A program made the translations under genes and the position numbers. From contig CALJVH010000024.1 of NCBI GenBank assembly GCA_937974645.1, positions 9,105-73,104 on the forward strand: DNA of 64,000 nucleotides, read 5' to 3'. The notes under the pieces are model-generated. The model searched no databases, was not told the origin of the DNA, and worked only from the letters and a program-made list of their open reading frames with translations. The stretch is from an uncultured archaeon (GTDB lineage Archaea > Thermoproteota > Nitrososphaeria_A > Caldarchaeales > Wolframiiraptoraceae). Below, one piece after another: positions 32,529 to 42,543 of the stretch. Each line of letters starts with the position of its first letter. Within the stretch, counting starts at the first letter, position 1.

Positions 32529-32646
32529 GTCTTGGAGGCTTAGCAAGGCTCATCGGCAATAATGTGGGGTTGGTGAAGGCTTCCTCCAAGTTTTTATATA
32601 AACAAATGCTTCAACTTGAGAACGCGACGTGTGCTACGTGAATCGA

Positions 32647-33147
32647 TTATAGCATCAACTCTCGGTATGGGATATTCATATCAAATTGTATCTCAGATAT
32701 GTGGAATGCTTTTCCGTGGAACACCACGATATGGCGAGTGGTTTTCGGTGGTAAGAGCTCACCCCTCAGCCCGGCATTCAAGACTAGATCCTTTGAAAGG
32801 TGTTCCCCTCCTCTCCAGCTCAGGACCATGATATTGGGGGAGCGATAGCGCACAAGAAGACATGGAGCTCTTTTGCAGCCCAATCTCTTTAGGGCATCAA
32901 CCCTATGATGCCCATCTATGATAATCAGAGTCTCACGATCAACTACTATCGGCTTCCTGATGAGGCCGCATGACCTAATGTCACCGGCGATCTCTTTGAC
33001 AAGTCCTGGGTCAACGCACTCGTGAGGCCTCAGAATGCTTATAGGTAATATCGCCACGCTGGACGATAGCTCCCGGAGGATATGCTTAAAGCCGTCATTG
33101 TTCACGTATTCCTCAGCGGGCCCGAAGAGAATCATGTTTATTCTCAT
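32647..33147 (-). CDS. ParB/Srx-fold protein with an intact DGHHR motif (candidate SerK-like kinase)
   Basis: LRPHE...IRKPIVVDRETLIIIDGHHRVDALKRLG is the ParB N-terminal/sulfiredoxin-fold signature. 166 aa. It is divergent from a CysK-type gene that carries a paralogous N-domain. Confidence 0.6.
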   Translation of the reverse strand: MRINMILFGPAEEYVNNDGFKHILRELSSSVAILPISILRPHECVDPGLVKEIAGDIRSCGLIRKPIVVDRETLIIIDGHHRVDALKRLGCKRAPCLLVRYRSPNIMVLSWRGGEHLSKDLVLNAGLRGELLPPKTTRHIVVFHGKAFHISEIQFDMNIPYRELML

Positions 33148-33230
33148 TTTTTGTCATATAACTATGTAATATAAATTTTTCCCACAAAACTTTATAGCAT
33201 GTTATCCTCAGCTTTCTCAAGGTCAAGAGG

Positions 33231-34562
33231 ATGGTACATCCAAATGAAATAAAGGTCGCAGGTCTGGCATCATTGCGAAGGATCTTCGAGGTGGATCTAG
33301 CTCTCCTCATGGAGGCTTATGGGCGCCTTTTGAAGAATCGACGCCTCGATAAGCCTCTGATAGTCGATAGGGATACGTGGGTGGTAGTTGGCGGCGTCGA
33401 GGTTCTTGAGGCACTTGATCAGCTTTCAGCCCACAAAGCGCCCGTTCTACTGGTTGGCCAGGATCAGCTCGTGATCGAGCGATTATCTGGAGAGAAACTT
33501 ACATTGAATGATTTAATTGAAGAACATCGTACTAAGCGGAGCAGGTTATCACTCAGAGACTTCAGGATTGAATATCTGTTTGATGTTCCATCCATAGATG
33601 TTCCACTGGATGATCTATGCGAAAGCACGAGGCTCGATAGACGTTCTCTCAGGGTTTATGATGACACTTTATCCCTGCTCGTGGAGAATTGGCCGACACC
33701 GCTCGTAAAGCTCAAATCCTTCTCATCTGATGGGAGGTCAGTTTACGCGAAGCTGGAGTCGTTCAACCCGCTCAGCAATAGCGTAAAGGATAGGATTGGC
33801 TGGTCCATGATAATGGATGCTCTGAGCCGCGGGGCGCTCGGAGACTTTCTATATGAGGCCACATCTACGAATACCGGAATAGCCCTGACCTCAATAGCGA
33901 ACGTGCTGGGAAGGAGGGTCAAGCTCTTCATTCCGAAGACAATTCAGAAGGCCAGTGACATTTTCTTGAAAGTCCTCGACGCGGAGGTCATCAGGGTTCC
34001 CGTTAGCCTAACAGTAGAAGCTATCTCCGAGGTCGATGCATTAGCGAGGAGGGACTGCGCAGTACATCTGAATCAGTTCGAGAATGACGCCAACTTCAAG
34101 GTTCACCTCAAGTATACTGCAAGGGAGCTCGACCAGCAGCTAGAGTCCGTCGGAGTCAAGCCCGACTACATTATCGGCGGGCTCGGAACATCCGGCCACA
34201 TAAGCGCCATTTCACTTTACTTCAAGGGCAAGTATGGCGACGGCGTTAAGATATTTGGGGTCCAGCCAGCCCAAAACCAAGTGATCCCAGGGATACGAAG
34301 AATCGAGTCTGGAATGAAGTGGATTCACATGGTTAAGCTTGACGGAATAATAGACATAACACTGGACGAAGCCATTGAAGGGGCAATTGAGGTCGCGCGA
34401 AGAGAAGGCCTCCTAATAGGCCTGAGCGCCGGAGCGGTCTTCAAGGCGTTCAAACGACTCTCTCCAGAAAAGGGGAACGTAGTCTTAGTATTCCCCGACA
34501 GTGGTTACAAATATGCAGAGCAATTCGAGGACTATTTCAAGAGAATTGAACGGCCAGAATAG
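33231..34562 (+). CDS. Fusion protein: degenerate ParB/Srx-like N-domain plus a cysteine synthase / O-phosphoserine sulfhydrylase-type PLP domain
   Basis: The C-terminal roughly 290 aa carry TPLVKL, the PLP lysine SVKDR, STNTGIAL and GLGTSGH. The N-terminal roughly 150 aa align to ORF 32647..33147 (LDKPLIVDRDTWVVVGGVEVLEALDQLSAHKAPVLLV against IRKPIVVDRETLIIIDGHHRVDALKRLGCKRAPCLLV). Confidence 0.7.
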   Translation: MVHPNEIKVAGLASLRRIFEVDLALLMEAYGRLLKNRRLDKPLIVDRDTWVVVGGVEVLEALDQLSAHKAPVLLVGQDQLVIERLSGEKLTLNDLIEEHRTKRSRLSLRDFRIEYLFDVPSIDVPLDDLCESTRLDRRSLRVYDDTLSLLVENWPTPLVKLKSFSSDGRSVYAKLESFNPLSNSVKDRIGWSMIMDALSRGALGDFLYEATSTNTGIALTSIANVLGRRVKLFIPKTIQKASDIFLKVLDAEVIRVPVSLTVEAISEVDALARRDCAVHLNQFENDANFKVHLKYTARELDQQLESVGVKPDYIIGGLGTSGHISAISLYFKGKYGDGVKIFGVQPAQNQVIPGIRRIESGMKWIHMVKLDGIIDITLDEAIEGAIEVARREGLLIGLSAGAVFKAFKRLSPEKGNVVLVFPDSGYKYAEQFEDYFKRIERPE

Positions 34563-34689
34563 GCGAGGCTGCACGAGAGAAAATCTAAGCTTCGACTTAT
34601 TTCTCTGTCCTAAATACCTTAACCTCATTCTAGGAATAGCATCACGACTATACTGAGGTCAAACGGCTTTTCCTAGAGGAATCATAGCC

Positions 34690-34927
34690 CTTGAGGTTCT
34701 TGATCATGTAGAGTGCTAGGGTGGAGATTATTGAGGCAGTTGAGAACGGGGTCGAATAAGGGCGCCGGGAAAAATCAATACGAGGATCTCCGGAATTCTA
34801 AACCTCTCATGAATAATGTCAGCCAGAAATCCAATTATCAGTATCCCTGAGTCTATGAGGAGAATAATTGCGGGATCCAAAATGCTCCAACGATTCCCAA
34901 CTCGTAACTGGTTGAAATCTGCTTCAT
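34690..34927 (-). pseudogene. Possible remnant of the N-terminus of a cation:proton antiporter gene
   Basis: The reverse strand reads MKQISTSYELGIVGAFWI, then after a frame change DPAIILLIDSGILIIGFLADIIHERFRIPEILVLIFPGALI. This resembles CPA-type antiporter N-termini. It is broken by stops, and no downstream body is present. Confidence 0.3.
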
Positions 34928-35005
34928 TCTCTTAAAAGAGCACATATCCTGCAAGCTTACCTTACGTAAGCCGGGTAACTACCCGGAAAATATTCACAAG
35001 TTTTG

Positions 35006-35016
35006 AAATATAAATA
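35006..35016 (+). promoter_or_regulatory. TATA-box-like element upstream of tRNA-Ser
   Basis: AAATATAAATA, centred about 30 nt upstream of tRNA position 1 (35041). This spacing is typical for archaeal promoters. Confidence 0.45.
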
Positions 35017-35040
35017 GATCCTATGAGAGACAGCTATTAG

Positions 35041-35148
35041 GCCGGGGTCCCATAGTCTGGTAGTGGGTCGGCCTGGAGACTTTTGCGTTTTGGACTGGAT
35101 AGCCGATGCCCCTTCCGGGGCGCGTGGGTTCAAATCCCACCCCCGGCG
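35041..35148 (+). tRNA. tRNA-Ser (anticodon GGA) with a canonical-position intron
   Basis: Folded by hand. The acceptor stem GCCGGGG pairs with CCCCGGC, and the discriminator is G. The D arm is CCAT/GTGG with GG in the loop. The anticodon stem TCGGC pairs with GCCGA only after a 22-nt insert is removed, and the loop is CTGGAGA. A long variable arm (GCCCC-TTCC-GGGGC) is present. The T arm is GTGGG-TTCAAAT-CCCAC. No CCA is encoded. Confidence 0.85.
35079..35100 (+). other. tRNA intron (about 22 nt, between positions 37 and 38; the boundary is ambiguous by 1 nt)
   Basis: The 3' half of the anticodon stem (GCCGA, 35102-35106) lies 22 nt beyond the anticodon loop. I did not verify a bulge-helix-bulge fold. 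Confidence 0.65.
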
Positions 35149-35329
35149 CACAGCTATCATTTCCAGTCTGTTAAGCCTTTTCCACACGTAATCTTTACAG
35201 CTGATTTAAAATCGCCACTCGTCGCTATGCAATGATTTGTACCGGCTGAAAACCGATTCGGTGGGAGATATTCTATTTCATGGAGGTATTGCTTCTAGTG
35301 TAAGGTTCATTGTTGCAAGGGCTCCAGCT

Positions 35330-36313
35330 CTATAGATGGTTAAGGTTATAGTATCGCCTGGCTTCCCATGCTCCTCTAAATATGCCAAAAGATTGACTAT
35401 CCCGAATATATTTTTGTCCATCTGAGAGAGAAATTAGGGTAGTTCTAGCCTTGAGTCCGGCAGATGAAGTCAGACTGCCCTTTTCAACATTAGTTATGAG
35501 GAAAACTCGAGCATCTGGGAGATCCATGGGCTTAGCTATCTCAACGTCCACATCAACTCCCGAAATACTGATCCATGGGTGCTGATACTTTCCAGTTTCT
35601 ATTAGCGATTTAGCAACTTTAGTCACCATGTTCGAGAGTATGGCGAATCCTATTCCTGAAAATTCTCAGGTCTGGGAGTATATCGCTGTTGTAACGCCTA
35701 TAACTCTGCCGGAGTAGTCTAGTAAAGGTCCTCCGCTGCTTCCGGGGTTTATTGCCGCATCGAATTATATTACATTAGGAATAATTCTGCCCTCAATAGC
35801 TTCTAGGCATCTATTAAGTTGACTAATAACTCCCGCAGTCAAGCTTGCGGCGAGCTCGTAAGGATTTCTTACAGCGGTTACAAATTGTCTAATCTTGAGT
35901 GTAAAAGAATTTCTCAAGATCAAAGGTTTAAGTATCTTACCTTCCGGCTGTATATTCAACACCAATATGGATCCACTCTTGTAATCGTGGCCTTAAACGA
36001 GCTTTTTATCAAGAGAGAATGCATTAATTCCAATAGCATTCTCAACGACGTAGTAGTTTGTTACAATGTGCCCCAGTTCATTGTATACGAAGCCTGATCC
36101 TTGACGCAATGCATAAATCTTTCCGAAAATCGTCTCCACGACCACCGTTGCTTTGATGAGGACTATGGAATCTTTCACCCTTTTATAAACAAGCTCTGGA
36201 GTGGTTAGGTTTTGCTGCCCTGCTTGACTGGAGATGTTCATCTTAAAAGAGTCAAGATCGTGCTGAATTCCAAATAATCCACTATGGATTTCATTCAATC
36301 TATTCTGACTCAC
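35330..36313 (-). pseudogene. HtrA/DegP-type trypsin-like serine protease, inactivated by in-frame stop codons
   Basis: Three track ORFs (35993..36313, 35765..35965, 35330..35629) share one frame. Reading through gives GSGFVYNELGHIVTNYYVV ... V(TAA)GHDYKSGSILVLNI ... NVI(TAA)[32 protein letters not shown](TGA)EFSGIGFAILSNMV. The GxSGGP serine motif is present, and the catalytic His position reads Tyr. Confidence 0.75.
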
Positions 36314-36571
36314 AAAAAATTACTGTGCTAAGCTAAAGAAGTTTTGGTTAGATAATTAATACGCCGAGAATTGAGGCGAGAGAAAGTGTAAAAGTCATTG
36401 CGAGCAGAAGGAAGTTTTCTTCATCGTCGCTCGAAATTTGATTTTATTCTGTGAGGGTAAAAACCTTCTCATTCTAGACTAGTGTTTCATGAACGTTTCA
36501 TGAAGTTCCTTAATACAGAGTTTTTCTCGATGGTTTCTGCAGTGTTGAGAATGAGCCTTCAAGAACACGCG

Positions 36572-37273
36572 ATGGTGAATGAACAAGGCGAGGCGATTAT
36601 CGAGCTAGTGAACGTTAGAAAAGTCTACGTTTCTGATGGAGTCTCAACAGAGGCTTTGAGAGGTGTTACGCTGATGATTAAAAGAGGGGAGTTTGTAGCT
36701 ATAGTTGGCCCATCAGGTTGCGGTAAATCCACATTGTTACATATCGTGGGTGGGCTTGATAGACCGACGAGCGGCAAGGTAACAGTGGATAACATATGTT
36801 TCAATAAGCTCTCCGATGACGATTTAGCTAGAGTGAGAAATGAAAAAATAGGATTCGTTTTCCAGTTCTATAACTTGGTTCCACACCTCTCCGTTTTTAA
36901 GAACGTTGAATTACCATTAATTGTTAAGGGTACCCCACCTCGCGAGAGAAAGGAAAAGGTTCTGAGCGTTATTGATGAAGTTGGATTGGTTGATAAGGCG
37001 TATTCTAGGCCTACGAGGTTGAGCGGCGGAGAGCAACAGAGGGTCGCAATCGCCAGGGCGTTAATCAATGATCCTACAATAATACTAGCGGACGAGCCAA
37101 CCGGAAACCTCGATTCCAGAAACAAGATAGTGATAGCGGAATTATTTAGGAAGCTTAACGAGAGAGGTAGAACAATACTGGTGGTTACTCACGATTTTGA
37201 GGTCGCCTCATATGCGAGGAGAATTCTGCACATTAGGGATGGTAAAATCGAGCGGGAGGAGGTGAAATCATGA
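36572..37273 (+). CDS. ABC transporter ATP-binding protein, MacB/LolD-like
   Basis: Walker A GPSGCGKST, signature LSGGEQQRVAIARAL, Walker B ILADEPTGNLD. I preferred the internal ATG at 36572 (MVNEQGEAIIEL). The track ORF starts at the GTG at 36482. Confidence 0.85.
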   Translation: MVNEQGEAIIELVNVRKVYVSDGVSTEALRGVTLMIKRGEFVAIVGPSGCGKSTLLHIVGGLDRPTSGKVTVDNICFNKLSDDDLARVRNEKIGFVFQFYNLVPHLSVFKNVELPLIVKGTPPRERKEKVLSVIDEVGLVDKAYSRPTRLSGGEQQRVAIARALINDPTIILADEPTGNLDSRNKIVIAELFRKLNERGRTILVVTHDFEVASYARRILHIRDGKIEREEVKS

Positions 37274-39339
37274 ATCGGAGTCTAGCATTATGCATCATCT
37301 CACAAACGCTGATAATACTGTCGCTGATAACCCCATGCATAAGGGCCGAAACAGGAACAATAGAAATAATAGATGTTCATTGGGGCACATCTGAAAAAGA
37401 ATGGGCGGCGATGAGGGGTGACAAAGCGACACTAATAATCAAATTCAGAAGCTTAATTGAGGATGAAAAAATCTGCGGCCTGAAAGTGATTTTATGGCCG
37501 GTCGACCTTTACAGGCCCTTCCCATTCGCTAGTGTAAAAAATGGGAGTATCGTAACATATACTGATCAGCAAATAAGCTTTGGGGATAAGGCTGAAATCA
37601 CCTTTGACGTAAAAATTAAGGATGACGCCATGCCTGGAACCTATGAAGCCTATCTCTACTTCTTCTACTATGATTGCGGAGATCCAGAGATTCCACTAAT
37701 AATGCGGTTGCAAAAAATAAACATTGACGTTTGGCCTCTTCCAGAATTTAGGTTGCTTAACATAAACTGGCTTAGTAATGAGGGTGTTCAGGTTAATATT
37801 GGGCCCGGAGATGTAAACAGAATACTGTCCGTTACGTTTGCCGTTTCGAAATATTATGAAGTTTCCAATATAGTTGCAACCCTTTACCTTGACGAACACT
37901 TCAGCAATCTTACAGGCGGAAAGGAAGTGAAGTCAAGCTATACCGGACTTATAAGTGAGGGCGAAAGCTTCACGCTAAGGTTCCCGCTAAATGTGAACAC
38001 TGACACTTCGCCTGGCACATATACCCTGAAGCTGGTTATGGAATACTATGATAAATGGCTGACCCAGCAATCTCAAGAAATCTTAATCCCGATCACGGTA
38101 TCTGGTAGCAGCAAGCTCGATCTTTCAATAGAAATCCCTGCATTAACAATTGGATCAACCTCAAACATGAGTATCAAAGTCACTAATGTTGGAAATGCGC
38201 CGATATACTCTCTTAAGCTGACCATTTCTTCGGAAAACTTAGTGGTGGTTGATGGAGAAGTTGATGTCGATGAGCTGCAGCCTGACGACACGTTAAACCG
38301 CTTCTTCTCGGTATGGGTTCCGGTCACATTATCTGAGGGAACATATTCCATTTCAGTTCAAACGGAGTATATTGATTCAAACGGTGTTAAGCAGACCTTA
38401 TCCAAGACTATTAAAGCCTATGTTAAGTCGCAGCCAACGCTCAGCCTGTCAGGGTACACAAAGACTCCCGAGATTGTTTTAGGGGAGAGTCAGAATCTCG
38501 AAATAGTTGTGGAGAACAATTATAACTCCCCAATAAAAGATGTAAGTATTAAAGCAATTTTTGAGGGCATGTCATTGGTATCAGCGAGGGATAGCCTCTT
38601 TTTCTTTGATGAAATCCCTGCTAAGAGTTCTGTTAAGTTAAAAATCCCTGTAACTGCTCCGCCTTCAGCATCGATAGGGACTAATTATGTAAAATTATCA
38701 GCCACTTACCGTAGCCCTTCTGGAAACCTTAGAACTGATGAGATCTCCATTCCAGTAGTAATCAAGCCGGATCTGAAGCTCGAGATCGCCAGCCTCACGT
38801 TCTCCTCCACCTTCGCAGCCCCGGGGGAATCCATTGACATATCAGGCGACATATATAACAGGGGTCTCTCAGCAGGTAAGCTATGCGAGGTTAAAGTGGG
38901 AGCGTCAAGTCCGTTAATCGTAACCGAGGACTCAAGAGATTATATCGGTGATATTTCATCTCTTTCTAAAGCATCGTTTACCGTGACCATCGATGTGGCT
39001 GAGAATGCAAGGCCAGGAAAATATTCAGGCGCTATCATTGTTTCCTGTAGCGATTCATTCGGAAATCTTTATCAGCTTTCAAGGGAATTTGAAATACAGG
39101 TAACGCAAGGCTTCACTTTTCCAAGTCTCACGTATGGAACAATAAGTCCGCCACAAAGAGAAAGTACTGCGGCACGAACGCGTGTCACAACCACCGAAGG
39201 ATTAAGTTATCTATCGATGTTACAACGCCCAATAGCGATTTTACTAATAGTATCCATCATAGCGGGGGCCATAATCGCGTTCTTGTTTGTAAGAAGAAGA
39301 TCGTCGAAGAAGAGGAGACAGGAGAATGAGGCTACTTGA
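37270..39339 (+). CDS. Secreted, C-terminally anchored multi-domain protein with CARDB / COG1361 (S-layer-domain-like) repeats
   Basis: N-terminal signal-like segment, then five recurrences of a PGxYxhxh..Y.D motif (PGTYEAYLYFFYYD, PGTYTLKLVMEYYD, EGTYSISVQTEYID, IGTNYVKLSATYRS, PGKYSGAIIVSCSD). NxG strands are present (VTNVGNAPI), and there is a C-terminal TM helix plus a basic tail RRRSSKKRRQ. The ATGA start overlaps the ATPase gene. Confidence 0.65.
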   Translation: MNRSLALCIISQTLIILSLITPCIRAETGTIEIIDVHWGTSEKEWAAMRGDKATLIIKFRSLIEDEKICGLKVILWPVDLYRPFPFASVKNGSIVTYTDQQISFGDKAEITFDVKIKDDAMPGTYEAYLYFFYYDCGDPEIPLIMRLQKINIDVWPLPEFRLLNINWLSNEGVQVNIGPGDVNRILSVTFAVSKYYEVSNIVATLYLDEHFSNLTGGKEVKSSYTGLISEGESFTLRFPLNVNTDTSPGTYTLKLVMEYYDKWLTQQSQEILIPITVSGSSKLDLSIEIPALTIGSTSNMSIKVTNVGNAPIYSLKLTISSENLVVVDGEVDVDELQPDDTLNRFFSVWVPVTLSEGTYSISVQTEYIDSNGVKQTLSKTIKAYVKSQPTLSLSGYTKTPEIVLGESQNLEIVVENNYNSPIKDVSIKAIFEGMSLVSARDSLFFFDEIPAKSSVKLKIPVTAPPSASIGTNYVKLSATYRSPSGNLRTDEISIPVVIKPDLKLEIASLTFSSTFAAPGESIDISGDIYNRGLSAGKLCEVKVGASSPLIVTEDSRDYIGDISSLSKASFTVTIDVAENARPGKYSGAIIVSCSDSFGNLYQLSREFEIQVTQGFTFPSLTYGTISPPQRESTAARTRVTTTEGLSYLSMLQRPIAILLIVSIIAGAIIAFLFVRRRSSKKRRQENEAT

Positions 39340-40597
39340 CGTACTGTATCTAGCGTTCTCCGCTCTAAGATCTAGGAAGCTCAGGACAACACTGACCATA
39401 CTTGGGATGACCATTGGTCCAGCCCTCTATGTTGCGGCAATCGCATCAACTCAAGGATATGGAGAGGCATTAACACGCAGCCTACAGACGCTAGGTGCTA
39501 ATGTCATTCAGATAATGTCAATGCCGGGAGGGCCGGGGGGTGGAAGCCGGGTGGAATTAACTGATAAAGTACTTCAGAAGTTGTCAGAGGTTGATGGAGT
39601 TGCTACGGTAGTCCCAATGTACTCCATATCCAGCGCTACAATCAGGATTAAAGGTACGACGGTGGAGGTGTCTCCGGGGGGAGAGACGTACAGAATTATT
39701 GCTGTGGATCTGAAGCTTCTTGACGACATTTTCAAAGGGCTTCAGCTAGGTGAAGGGAATCTTTCTGGGACTGGTAGTTCCATAGCAGTGATAGGCGCGA
39801 AGATTTCAAAGCCCGATAACTCAGATCTCCCGGAGATAAATCTCGGCGATGCGATAACCATAGAAGTAACTTCAAGTGGCGGGGAAAAACACGCAATCAC
39901 CGTAAGGGTAATCGGTATATTAAAGGAATATGGGCAGGGTCTTTTCTTCAACCCGGATACAACGATATTTATACCGTTAAGAGCTGGAAAAAGATTGACG
40001 GGCTTATCAACGTATAGTCAGGTGTTCATAATAGCTAGAGATACAAGCTATATTCAACAAATCCAGACCGAGATAACAAATGTTATTGGCAGTAATGTTA
40101 GAGCATTTTCACCGCAGCAAATAGCGCAAACAATTGAGCAGACGATGGGGCAGTTTTCATCATTCCTGGCCTCAATATCCTTTATGTCATTCATAGTCGC
40201 ATTTCTGGCTATAATGACGACAATGTTCACATCGGTCACGGAGAGAGTTAGGGAGATCGGAATTCTGAAAGCAGTGGGATTCAGGACAAAACATATCCTA
40301 GGATTGTTCCTCACAGAGGCTGTGTTGATAGGGCTTATAGGAGGAGCGCTAGGCATTACCGCGGGCGTTATCGGGGCTCATTTCTTCTACCTGCCTTTTG
40401 GGAACATTAGCGCACCATTCGGGCAGCCTGGAAGAAGTCAAGTAGTAACTTTTTCCTTACAGGTAACTCCAAAAATAACCCTTGACCTATTATTGACGAC
40501 ATTGGCGATGGCCATCATGATAGGGTTGCTAGCGGGCCTGATCCCAGCTTGGAGGGCGGCAAAATACCGTCCAGTGGAGGCGCTGAGATATGAGTGA
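39326..40597 (+). CDS. ABC transporter permease, FtsX/MacB family with a large extracytoplasmic domain
   Basis: N-terminal LRSRKLRTTLTILGMTIG, an extracytoplasmic loop of about 230 aa, and a C-terminal FtsX module (REIGILKAVGF...). Overlaps the upstream gene by 14 nt. Confidence 0.8.
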   Translation: MRLLDVLYLAFSALRSRKLRTTLTILGMTIGPALYVAAIASTQGYGEALTRSLQTLGANVIQIMSMPGGPGGGSRVELTDKVLQKLSEVDGVATVVPMYSISSATIRIKGTTVEVSPGGETYRIIAVDLKLLDDIFKGLQLGEGNLSGTGSSIAVIGAKISKPDNSDLPEINLGDAITIEVTSSGGEKHAITVRVIGILKEYGQGLFFNPDTTIFIPLRAGKRLTGLSTYSQVFIIARDTSYIQQIQTEITNVIGSNVRAFSPQQIAQTIEQTMGQFSSFLASISFMSFIVAFLAIMTTMFTSVTERVREIGILKAVGFRTKHILGLFLTEAVLIGLIGGALGITAGVIGAHFFYLPFGNISAPFGQPGRSQVVTFSLQVTPKITLDLLLTTLAMAIMIGLLAGLIPAWRAAKYRPVEALRYE

Positions 40598-41315
40598 GGA
40601 AGGTCCGGGAAATGATTACTGGAAAAAGAATCTTAAAGCTATGCTTTCTTCAAGAAAAACGAAGTGGATAATATTGGGGTGCATCATTGTTGTCGCATTA
40701 ATTACATCTACAATTATGATATACGATTACTTTGCCGAGAAAAGTTTAAGGGAGAAAAAGGATCTTGAAATGCTACTAGACCTACTGGAAAAAGAAGTTA
40801 AAGAAATTGAAGAGAATAGATCCATATATGGGCCGCCTCCCCCGAGAGTTGACGTTCAGGATGCTAGGATTTTATTAGATAAAGCTCGACAACACTCCAG
40901 AAGGGGAGAATATGATCTTGCATGGCTGAATATTAAAAAACTAATGTTCATGTTACGCGAGTACTTCCTTCAACCAGGTATAAACGTCATTGATGAAGAA
41001 GCCGCTATGAAATGCATTCTCTTGGGAAAGATTGAGAGAATTAAACGCTGGATAGACATCTTCATGGAACTTTCCGAAAAAACATGCGACGAAAATGTAA
41101 AGGATTTATTATTAAACGCTTCAAATACTTTGAAGCAGATAGTTAAAGAAGCTGAACAGCTTGTCGAAAAGGGCTCTTACCAAGAGGCTAAGATCAAATT
41201 GGATAAAGCGTTTAAGATAATTAATGATATTTTGAAATCTCTAAAACCCAATATACCACCACCCCCACCTCCGAGGGAAGGGATTATGCGAGCTCCACCT
41301 CATTTCTCCGATTGA
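40590..41315 (+). CDS. Membrane-anchored helical / coiled-coil protein with a proline-rich tail, function unknown
   Basis: A single N-terminal TM helix (WIILGCIIVVALITSTIMIY), then a K/E-rich helical region, GPPPPR, and C-terminal IPPPPPPREG. Overlaps the FtsX gene by 8 nt. Confidence 0.5.
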   Translation: MSEEGPGNDYWKKNLKAMLSSRKTKWIILGCIIVVALITSTIMIYDYFAEKSLREKKDLEMLLDLLEKEVKEIEENRSIYGPPPPRVDVQDARILLDKARQHSRRGEYDLAWLNIKKLMFMLREYFLQPGINVIDEEAAMKCILLGKIERIKRWIDIFMELSEKTCDENVKDLLLNASNTLKQIVKEAEQLVEKGSYQEAKIKLDKAFKIINDILKSLKPNIPPPPPPREGIMRAPPHFSD

Positions 41316-42114
41316 CTTTCACAACTCGAACCAATCCTCTTCTCTCAAGTCTTCTAACAACCCTCCAAACGGTAGTCTTAGGGAGATGGGTCAAAGCTCT
41401 AATATCTGATTCAGAAACTCTCCTCCTTTTTCTAATTATCTCCAAAATTCTCTTCTCATCTTCTGAGAGATCATACAAGCCTCTCCTAAACCTCCTCACA
41501 AATATTATCGTAGAAAGTGCAGCAACGAAGCCTCCTAGTGATCCAACAAGAATAAGGACGGGAAAATTTTGTTGCGCATTTTCATTAAAAGAAGTCTCAC
41601 CGACTCGCATTATATATTCTATCCTCCAGTATCCAGGGCTTAGAATAAGCTTCAGTAAGCCCCCCTCACTTGTTATTGTCCTTGGGATGTCAGTCAAAGA
41701 GAGTATCATACTTTTACTCGGCAGTAAAATTGCGGCCTCCATCGGTAGATACAATTCTAGAATCCATAAAGAGCCATTTTTAAATGTCAGAGCATCAGTA
41801 TCATAATAGATTATTACCTCTTGCAATGAGTCGTAATGAATAACCAATTTGTCTGCCGTCAGATCATAATTAAGAAGGGTTCCATCTTCCCTTAGCACTA
41901 TGAGATTTTCCACATCATTAGTAAGTAAATTGACAGTAACGTTTCCCATAGACTTGTCAGGAAAAATCTTTTCTTCTACATGCACCACTCCATCTTCGTA
42001 GACCCTTAAAGTCAAACTAGGCATGTTGACCCCCAAAACAGAAGAAGCCGAAGAGAGCATAATGAGTAGAAGCAGCAAAAACACCAGGCGTTCTTCCGTG
42101 GCGCTTCTAGCCAT
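41284..42114 (-). CDS. Membrane-tethered winged-helix (TrmB/MarR-like) regulator with an extracytoplasmic domain
   Basis: Signal/TM segment LVFLLLLLIMLSSASS, an outside domain of about 170 aa, a TM helix FPVLILVGSLGGFVAALSTIIFV, then a cytoplasmic wHTH EDEKRILEIIRKRRRVSESDIRALTHLPKTTVWRVVRRLERRGLV. Confidence 0.6.
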   Translation of the reverse strand: MARSATEERLVFLLLLLIMLSSASSVLGVNMPSLTLRVYEDGVVHVEEKIFPDKSMGNVTVNLLTNDVENLIVLREDGTLLNYDLTADKLVIHYDSLQEVIIYYDTDALTFKNGSLWILELYLPMEAAILLPSKSMILSLTDIPRTITSEGGLLKLILSPGYWRIEYIMRVGETSFNENAQQNFPVLILVGSLGGFVAALSTIIFVRRFRRGLYDLSEDEKRILEIIRKRRRVSESDIRALTHLPKTTVWRVVRRLERRGLVRVVKVNRRNEVELA

Positions 42115-42543
42115 TTTCTATTCTAAACACTGTCCTCTGGCAGACTTTATTTATATATTATTCACTCGTTTCCGTTCATATGGTGTGCCTAATCAATGCC
42201 TCCCCCCGTAAATGTTTACCGGCCAATTTGGCGGAAAGCTGGTTCGGGAAAAGATGAACACGTTTTCATTTAGGTTTTTATTTAAAAATCATCTTAGTCA
42301 ACGTAGTTGCGTAGTCCATAAGGATGTATTCCCATTCTTATTTATCGAGATTCTTGTCTCCTATTATAGAAACGGTGTATGAAGCCGAAAAAGGCGTACG
42401 CAGAAAAGAACCTAGAGATTGCTGAAAAGCGGAGAGAACCGATTTGATTCGTGTTAATTCTTGAAACGTCCTCGAAAGCATGTATCTTTTGTGGACCATT
42501 TTTCTGGTAAGAGGATGGTGCTAATGATTTATACAGCTCCTCT

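Follow-up and report, generated by a model that had tools for sequence, protein, structure and literature searches.

The 64,000-nucleotide stretch of DNA analysed here (the window) comes from an uncultured archaeon of the order Caldarchaeales, family Wolframiiraptoraceae (contig CALJVH010000024.1 of assembly GCA_937974645.1, which is 0.99 Mb in size and 82% complete), and carries a compact five-gene locus that joins an ATP-binding cassette (ABC) transporter to a membrane-tethered regulator. From a six-frame list of open reading frames (ORFs), it is clear that four genes on the forward strand (36482-37273, 37270-39339, 39326-40597 and 40590-41315) overlap successively by 4, 14 and 8 nt, and that a fifth gene on the reverse strand (41284-42114) converges on them with a 32-nt overlap, just as an earlier reading of the DNA letters alone (the sequence-only reading) had described. 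The same 4/14/8 overlaps are also present in Geocrenenecus (L016). The domains that had been proposed for the ATPase, the CARDB-repeat protein, the permease and the winged helix-turn-helix (wHTH) were likewise correct, as annotation with Pfam and NCBIfam models confirmed. The picture of a single self-contained machine of five parts did not survive, however: the locus splits into an ATPase/CARDB/FtsX triad that is found throughout the phylum Thermoproteota and a separate pair made of the regulator and a helical partner protein.

The first gene encodes an ABC ATPase of the MacB/LolD/FtsE subfamily (36551-37273, forward strand; ABC_tran, 8e-36). Its best NCBIfam matches are LolD (1e-70), MacB (1e-69), DarD (2e-69) and FtsE (9e-65), all of which fall under their equivalog cut-offs (237.7 bits against 307.75 for LolD, 235 against 966 for MacB and 218.3 against 264.85 for FtsE), and its placement in LolD/MacB/FtsE is predicted at the subfamily level only. 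The gene is real, as had been claimed, but the start given for it at 36482 lies too far upstream, since the repeats and the TATA-like box described below occupy 36484-36515. The window only happens to keep the ORF open across these repeats. In G021, L031 and L066 they read CATC/CATT and stand upstream of the called ATPase start, and are thus non-coding there. Since the promoter is conserved while the repeats are non-coding in these three relatives, and since a transcript begun about 30 nt after the TATA-like box would start near 36540, with the ATG at 36551 as the first one thereafter, the ATPase probably begins at 36551 and is 240 rather than 263 amino acids (aa) long. This ATG is kept in G002 and G007.

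The second gene (37270-39339, forward strand) encodes an exported protein of 689 aa with a signal peptide, five beta-sandwich domains, a disordered linker, a C-terminal transmembrane (TM) anchor and a basic tail. Both of its Pfam matches lie above the gathering score (CARDB, 35.6 bits with a cut-off of 22.7; NPCBM_assoc, 46.5 bits with a cut-off of 24.4). An AlphaFold2 model built with 12 homologs has a mean predicted local distance difference test score (pLDDT) of 83 and consists of five beta-sandwich domains (residues 30-611), a disordered linker (615-654) and a C-terminal TM helix, so that the CARDB-like fold suspected from the repeats is what structure prediction returns. When the model was searched with Foldseek, only generic strings of Ig/MG-like domains were retrieved (hydin-like proteins, alpha-2-macroglobulin and complement), which gave no functional lead, and a search by sequence for a solved relative found none. 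Across the order, the homologs are full-length and retain the signal peptide, the five domains, the anchor and the basic tail. The more distant of them share 17-24% identity with the window protein, and a motif at the N-terminus, D-x2-WG-x9-PGD, is invariant or nearly so across the paralogs. In the otherwise complete 1.68-Mb single-contig genome G030 (genus g8, the other genomes of which are named Candidatus Caldarchaeum), the CARDB gene of the triad at L024 (8069-10038) is split into two ORFs of 174 and 489 aa, by either a frameshift or a sequencing error.

The third gene (39326-40597, forward strand) encodes a MacB-type permease, in which Pfam recognizes an outer MacB_PCD domain (1.9e-18, residues 21-252) and a C-terminal FtsX domain (1.5e-20, residues 283-414), both over the cut-off. 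Hydropathy places four TM helices at residues 22-40, 280-298, 324-342 and 388-406, with a 240-residue loop between the first and the second. As with the ATPase, the more specific models are not reached (lolCE, 77.4 bits against 362.45; FtsX models, 22-33 bits against 225-255). The sequence-only reading had left room for a known transporter family, and at the equivalog level there is none, the cut-offs for LolCDE, FtsEX and MacB all being missed. Among the five module proteins, Pfam found no match of the HlyD or biotin-lipoyl-like type.

The last cistron of the operon (40590-41315, forward strand) encodes a signal-anchored extracytoplasmic helical protein, with no Pfam family, one TM helix at residues 26-44 by hydropathy, and two hairpin motifs of the form A..LL.EA...G.Y..A. 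It had been described as a single-pass helical protein with a polyproline tail, and the first part of that description holds, whereas conservation does not extend to the tail, which L016, L032 and L066 lack. The convergent gene (41284-42114, reverse strand) encodes a transmembrane transcription regulator (TTR) composed of a signal/anchor, an all-beta ectodomain of about 140 residues, one TM helix at 186-204 and, in its last 60 residues (214-275), a wHTH domain matched by HTH_24, TrmB, MarR and DUF7343. The ectodomain belongs to no Pfam family and was modelled with a pLDDT of about 90 over residues 33-169; its closest folds are the lumenal domain of ribophorin I and the N-terminal domain of M1/M61 peptidases (E ~1e-5, TM-score 0.3-0.39), a predicted likeness at the fold level only. 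A profile search of 1.84 billion representatives returned 208 clusters (E<=1e-30) that share this architecture over the full length, and in the homologs the recognition helix of the wHTH, TT[VM]WR..[KR]RLE, is nearly invariant. Two members of the family (P0067 and P0078) have one or two CARDB domains inserted between ectodomain and TM helix, because of which CARDB domains may serve as stalks in regulators too.

Just upstream of the ATPase gene there is a conserved tandem direct repeat, GTTTCAT-GAAC-GTTTCAT (36484-36501, forward strand), which is our candidate operator. A TATA-like box, TTCCTTAATA (36506-36515, forward strand), stands 4 nt downstream of the proximal repeat, and this arrangement, GTTTCAT-N4-TYCCTTAW, is seen in all lineages. 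The operator and TATA-like region reads GTTTCATGAACGTTTCATGAAGTTCCTTAATA in the window, GTTTCATCGACGTTTCATCAAGTTCCTTATAG in G021, GTTTCATTAATGTTTCATCAAGTTCCTTATAG in L031, GTTTCATAGTCATTTCATGATAATCTTCTTAAG in L063, GTTTCACAGTGTTTCATGATGTTCCTTAATA in L065 and GTTTCATTAACGTTTCATCGAGTTCCTTATAG in L066. Every module with available upstream DNA has two half-sites, spaced by one helical turn, and a TATA-like box after them: the exact pair precedes the ATPase gene in the window, G002, G007, G021, L031-33 and L066, and variants with one mismatch or an N3 spacer do so in L063 and L065. Among the 59 loci scanned, the exact pattern is absent from the 49 others; it occurs once in the window and once in the whole assembly. 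No GTTTCAT element was found at the regulator-less control triads L026, L017 and L018. Control of the operon by the membrane-tethered wHTH, as the sequence-only reading had proposed, is backed by this presence in front of the ATPase in all such modules and by its uniqueness in the genome.

The same element is found at loci that lack the ABC genes. At L028, L075, L076 and L077, GTTTCAT half-sites, direct or inverted, stand before the gene for the helical partner, and the spacing from the proximal one to TCCCTTAT or TCGCTTAA is once more exactly 4 nt. Modules of the five-gene clade have their only GTTTCAT pair upstream of the ATPase gene and not of the partner gene. Judging from this distribution, GTTTCAT is very probably the binding site of the TM-wHTH family, with DNA binding by the window wHTH itself predicted from its sequence. 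The ancestral target of the regulator would be the promoter of the partner gene, from which the partner is separated by the triad in the five-gene clade. Since the GTTTCAT site is just upstream of the region of the B recognition element (BRE) and TATA box, activation is suggested as a guess. The regulator gene has a promoter of its own, with a TATA-like ATAAATAA (42147-42154, reverse strand) about 35 nt upstream of its start codon, conserved in the window, G002, G007, G021 and L031. At L075 (9330-9460, reverse strand), in genus g3, the partner promoter with its GTTTCAC/GTGAAAC/GTTTCAT half-sites comes directly after an apparent tRNA 3' end (GGTTCAAATCCCGGCCGGAGCA).

In addition to the locus itself, we have checked how far its parts travel together. 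Searches of the five proteins against 14 loci of the order by tblastn found the gene order ATPase-CARDB-FtsX, in most cases with codons that overlap. When 201 genomes drawn from the phylum were searched with a CARDB-protein profile, 159 of them matched, in 77 of the 94 genera, and in 20 distant loci sampled the ATPase gene adjoins the CARDB gene in 19 and the permease gene in 17. The triad is thus a phylum-wide unit of Thermoproteota, usually without a TM-wHTH regulator. A second, distant copy is present in the same genome (contig 10, L026, 5998-9767, reverse strand), with a CARDB protein of 651 aa and 18% identity to that of the window; triads of this type occur in nearly all family members and look like the housekeeping copy. 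In the literature searched we found no paper that assigns a function to the archaeal ATPase/CARDB/FtsX triad, which is on record only as an uncharacterised gene neighbourhood. The genes of the module go unmentioned in the Wolframiiraptor paper.

The fourth gene, which the sequence-only reading had taken for a coiled-coil component of the pump, pairs with the regulator instead, since homologous or look-alike helical proteins stand beside TM-wHTH genes where no ABC genes are found. The regulator family as a whole mostly occurs without ABC genes, and each of the homologs at L028, L075, L076, L077 and L078 adjoins an exported helical protein. Directly upstream of one such homolog, P0030 (38% identity to the window regulator, in the ABC-less locus L028), is a helical protein of 286 aa that is 25% identical to the fourth protein of the window over 181 aa (E 1e-12). 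At L075/L076 and at L077, which represent two other genera of the order, the regulator homologs adjoin helical proteins that bear signals, and hhalign gave the window partner a probability of 63% against that of L075 and 84% against that of L077. These neighbourhoods argue that the regulator and its helical partner are a two-gene signalling unit separate from the ABC triad. The genome of the window also contains a shorter TM-wHTH paralog of 305 aa followed by an exported helical protein of 409 aa (G000 contig 39, L078, 1029-3255), where no GTTTCAT pair was found.

The complete five-gene form has a narrow and patchy distribution. Among named genomes the closest loci are those of Candidatus Wolframiiraptor allenii and Ca. 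W. gerlachensis (permease identity 83-84%), followed by those of Ca. Geocrenenecus huangii and Ca. Caldarchaeum, which marks the source of the window as a Wolframiiraptor-like archaeon of the Caldarchaeales ("Aigarchaeota"). Only close relatives have the helical protein and the TM-wHTH beside the triad, namely two of 13 genus mates (G002 and G007), one Geocrenenecus genome and several metagenome contigs, and within the genus the genomes with a full-length regulator homolog are exactly the same two. Co-conservation of the five genes, on which the sequence-only reading depended, holds in six or seven lineages in a survey of gene neighbourhoods, and the arrangement is maintained down to a regulator identity of 48-55%. 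In a maximum-likelihood tree, the permeases of seven five-gene modules form one clade (support 100/100), the sister of which is a clade of operons preceded by a TetR-family gene (94/95), with a single-copy Caldarchaeum clade next outward (98/97). The regulated five-gene form therefore has a single origin and is a young, movable clade. On one contig of GCA_038728025.1 (L066, 2511-15100), a TetR-preceded triad and a five-gene module stand in tandem with fragments of a 6-phosphogluconate dehydrogenase gene between them, which looks like a snapshot of the duplication that yielded both regulated clades.

The module behaves as one block at the nucleotide level as well. Homology between the window and G002/G007 spans exactly 36472-42125, at about 74.5% identity, and the flanks of the module in these two genomes (with a neighbouring major facilitator superfamily (MFS) transporter gene and HEPN/PIN genes) differ from those in the window. 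This block is missing from 10 of 13 genus mates. The window site, beside an M20 peptidase gene, is occupied by other genes in G005 and G007. The low-GC setting noted by the sequence-only reading is borne out by a GC content of 0.41-0.45 at about 35-43 kb, compared with 0.49-0.55 in the flanks. The variable region is wider than this low-GC part, since the 10 kb from the gene of a 362-aa membrane protein to the M20 peptidase gene (32532-42512) are non-syntenic with G005 and G007, where about 8.9 kb of different genes take their place (for a thioredoxin reductase-like protein, an HtrA paralog and an aldehyde dehydrogenase). A tRNA lies at one edge of the island (35041-35148, forward strand; Rfam, 45 bits) and was missed by ARAGORN. 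We have considered a tRNA-linked integrative island and set it aside: no att-like repeat was found, and inspection of the ORF list for 35-42.5 kb, in which families were assigned only for the five genes and the HtrA fragments, revealed no integrase-like ORF. A defence system was likewise dismissed, PADLOC having returned only generic hits to ABC, LolE-TM and Csa3-wHTH domains. No gene for a toxin, a peptide or its maturation was seen in or beside the module in any of the contexts looked at.

Divergent from the operon lies an HtrA-like protease pseudogene (trypsin and PDZ domains; 35330-36397, reverse strand), which has in-frame stops and no N-terminal anchor. Its read-through translation and the intact membrane-anchored HtrA that stands beside the module in L016 (Geocrenenecus) and L031 share 52-54% identity over about 300 aa, and the pseudogene is taken to be the ortholog of these genes; identity to the other HtrA paralog found in genus mates is no more than 30-34%. 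The intact relatives have Trypsin_2 and PDZ_2 domains in Pfam, and they are found beside the five-gene module in L016, L031-33 and L065, in the last of these one gene away from the regulator. In G002, G007, L034, L063, L066 and L067 there is no HtrA near the module. The protease is a recurrent but dispensable companion of the module.

Comparison with known systems helps to place both halves of the locus. In Escherichia coli, the type VII systems each use a dedicated periplasmic partner, as in MacAB-TolC, LolCDE-LolA, FtsEX-EnvC and YbbAP-TesA (PMC12646458), and among archaea the ATPase MJ0796 of Methanocaldococcus jannaschii has been termed a LolD homolog (PMC8277102). The window triad has in common with the type VII systems a nucleotide-binding domain of the LolD/MacB/FtsE subfamily, a 4-TM permease with a large outer domain between TM1 and TM2 and an FtsX domain, and an outer partner encoded in the same operon. 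It is unlike them in that the partner is an anchored string of five CARDB domains and not a membrane fusion protein (MFP) adaptor, a LolA-type carrier, an EnvC-type activator or a hydrolase. The HlyD/MFP adaptor typical of MacAB-TolC is missing from the module proteins, the organism has a single membrane in contrast to E. coli, and neither LolCDE nor FtsEX is matched at the equivalog level. Compared with the typical archaeal triad, the window copy is an accessory paralog that stands behind a promoter with predicted TTR control and is followed by the gene for the regulator's partner.

TTRs are defined by a DNA-binding domain and at least one TM region in the same protein (Demey et al. 2023, PMC10269533), and include ToxR-ToxS and TcpP-TcpH in Vibrio and ArnR/ArnR1 in Sulfolobus (PMC10269533, PMC6396743). 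With its predicted DNA-binding wHTH and its TM helix, the fifth protein falls within this definition, and it shares with other TTRs the tethered DNA-binding domain, a sensing part outside and a co-encoded partner that is single-pass or exported. ToxS and TcpH are such co-encoded partners of ToxR and TcpP, and regulators of the ToxR/CadC type have an N-terminal cytoplasmic wHTH of the OmpR type and a C-terminal periplasmic sensor. In contrast, the window regulator is reversed, with an N-terminal ectodomain and a C-terminal wHTH of the MarR/TrmB/DUF7343 type, which places it outside the ToxR/CadC type. Its partner is all-helical. Two further likenesses are of logic only. The BceAB-BceRS modules of Firmicutes combine a 10-TM BceB permease with an adjacent two-component system, and the window locus likewise pairs an FtsX-type ABC transporter with a dedicated membrane sensor, although its regulator is of the one-component kind and its permease has four TM helices, so that it is not a Bce-type module. 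The Cpx system has CpxP and DegP, and here, too, a regulator would induce its own extracytoplasmic helical partner, and in some lineages a protease of the HtrA family is close by; the helical partner showed no relationship in sequence to CpxP or Spy.

Taken together, we consider the locus to be an accessory, transcriptionally controlled copy of an archaeal MacB-type (type VII) ABC machine that works as an inducible pump for envelope clearance or detoxification, and put the probability of this reading at roughly 0.55. A cytoplasmic ATPase dimer would drive the four-helix FtsX/MacB permease, and the outer domain of the permease would cooperate with the membrane-anchored string of five CARDB beta-sandwich domains, the genes of all three being in all likelihood translationally coupled. 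This pump copy would sit inside the two-gene signalling unit formed by the wHTH protein, with its sensor outside and its DNA-binding domain inside, and the exported helical partner. The regulator would bind the GTTTCAT repeats, the last of which stops 4 nt short of the BRE/TATA region, and the promoter there would drive the ATPase, the CARDB protein, the permease and the partner as one transcript, so that an envelope signal would induce the pump along with the partner of the regulator itself, in a feedback loop. The pump would then most likely act on the outer face of the membrane, removing or extracting amphipathic material that is harmful or out of place, a stress or detoxification role in addition to that of the housekeeping paralog elsewhere in the genome. 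We favour clearance or detoxification because the copy is accessory and under a sensor-regulator, because its sister clade is controlled by TetR and because a housekeeping paralog is present in the same genome. TetR-family repressors are typical controllers of efflux pumps, and the MFS transporter that adjoins the module in G002 and G007 adds to the plausibility of detoxification.

Several observations weigh against this proposal. The locus contains no substrate gene, and the HlyD-type adaptor that would mark an efflux conduit is missing from the module proteins in Pfam. In Caldarchaeum the same type of pump is single-copy between glyA and serS, and this unregulated, housekeeping context means that the basic role may be constitutive envelope biogenesis rather than detoxification. 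Autoregulation finds no echo in the ABC-linked modules, in which no conserved GTTTCAT pair was found at the regulator's own promoter; GTTTCAT stands at that promoter only in ABC-less loci where the partner and regulator genes are co-directional (L028 and L077). The candidate operator could be bound by another factor. The partner homology, with hhalign probabilities of 63-84% and of only 12.6% for the L078 paralog in the organism's own genome, is weak for low-complexity helical proteins.

Since HtrA recurs beside the module, an extended version can be imagined, namely an archaeal counterpart of the Cpx or sigma-E circuits for envelope stress, assembled from unrelated parts, which we regard as an improbable elaboration. 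In such a circuit, the helical partner would hold the tethered wHTH inactive via the beta-sandwich ectodomain, until damage titrated the partner away or the co-travelling membrane-anchored HtrA-like protease degraded the partner or clipped the sensor. The freed regulator would activate the GTTTCAT promoter, yielding both a MacB/CARDB effector for repair or clearance and fresh partner that would end the response.

The CARDB protein could be cargo instead of a component, with the motor extracting its C-terminal anchor or handing it to the surface layer in a Lol-like manner, and the locus would then be an inducible alternative coat for surface variation. The cleavable-looking signal, the long disordered linker, the single C-terminal anchor, the strong divergence of the paralogs (17-24% identity to the more distant homologs in the order), the patchy low-GC cassette and the presence of LolCDE among the nearest NCBIfam matches would all suit a cargo. 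However, nearly all the lineages sampled have the CARDB gene placed between those for the ATPase and the permease, and with overlapping codons, which fits a subunit better; the near-invariant D-x2-WG-x9-PGD suggests a conserved contact and not a variable coat, and the scores fall far short of the Lol equivalog cut-offs. Cargo is thus unlikely, though the least so of the alternatives weighed here. Because of its gene position and coupled translation, we take the CARDB protein to be a stoichiometric subunit, most simply the extracytoplasmic partner of the permease by analogy with the type VII systems.

The remaining alternatives concern the purpose of the pump and its tie to the regulator. The sequence-only reading had thought of a role in conflict, and a cassette for immunity, Bce-like or bacteriocin-immunity-like, would remove a competitor's antimicrobial peptide, with the ectodomain of the TM-wHTH as the peptide sensor. 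The accessory, movable, lower-GC nature of the cassette and the dedicated membrane sensor-regulator beside a MacB/FtsX-type ABC transporter, as in Bce modules, speak for it, as does the resemblance of the ectodomain fold to the peptide-handling domains of M1/M61 peptidases and ribophorin I. We nevertheless find it doubtful, more so than cargo, since a peptide, toxin or maturation gene is absent in all contexts seen, the PADLOC hits are generic, the regulator family mostly does without ABC genes, and the permease has four TM helices and not the 10 of BceB. Least probable of all would be that the regulator controls the helical partner only and that the ABC genes, merely upstream of it, hitch-hike, leaving pump and signalling pair functionally untied. 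It is true that the regulator-partner pair with its GTTTCAT motif exists without the ABC genes, and that the triad exists without the pair in most genomes. Yet the only GTTTCAT pair of the five-gene clade precedes the ATPase gene, the overlap of the four genes means that the partner could hardly be expressed without the pump, and the arrangement is retained to 48-55% regulator identity and moves as one block.

Three things in this locus are new. Within Caldarchaeales, the regulator, its helical partner and the GTTTCAT promoter form a unit; a MacB/CARDB triad has been captured behind that promoter; and the cassette that resulted is patchily distributed. In the literature searched we found no published description of the unit, of the capture or of the cassette. 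Few archaeal transmembrane regulators come, like the one in this locus, with an operator and a partner that can be predicted and with a clear target operon. If the envelope-stress circuit were true, it would be the first described archaeal extracytoplasmic stress response with sensor, modulator, protease, operator and effector assigned. Ca. Wolframiiraptor gerlachensis, a close relative that carries the module, has been grown in laboratory enrichment culture (PMC9246946). Of the Thermoproteota genomes sampled, about four-fifths have the triad. The condition that induces the GTTTCAT promoter would reveal what this widespread machine is for.

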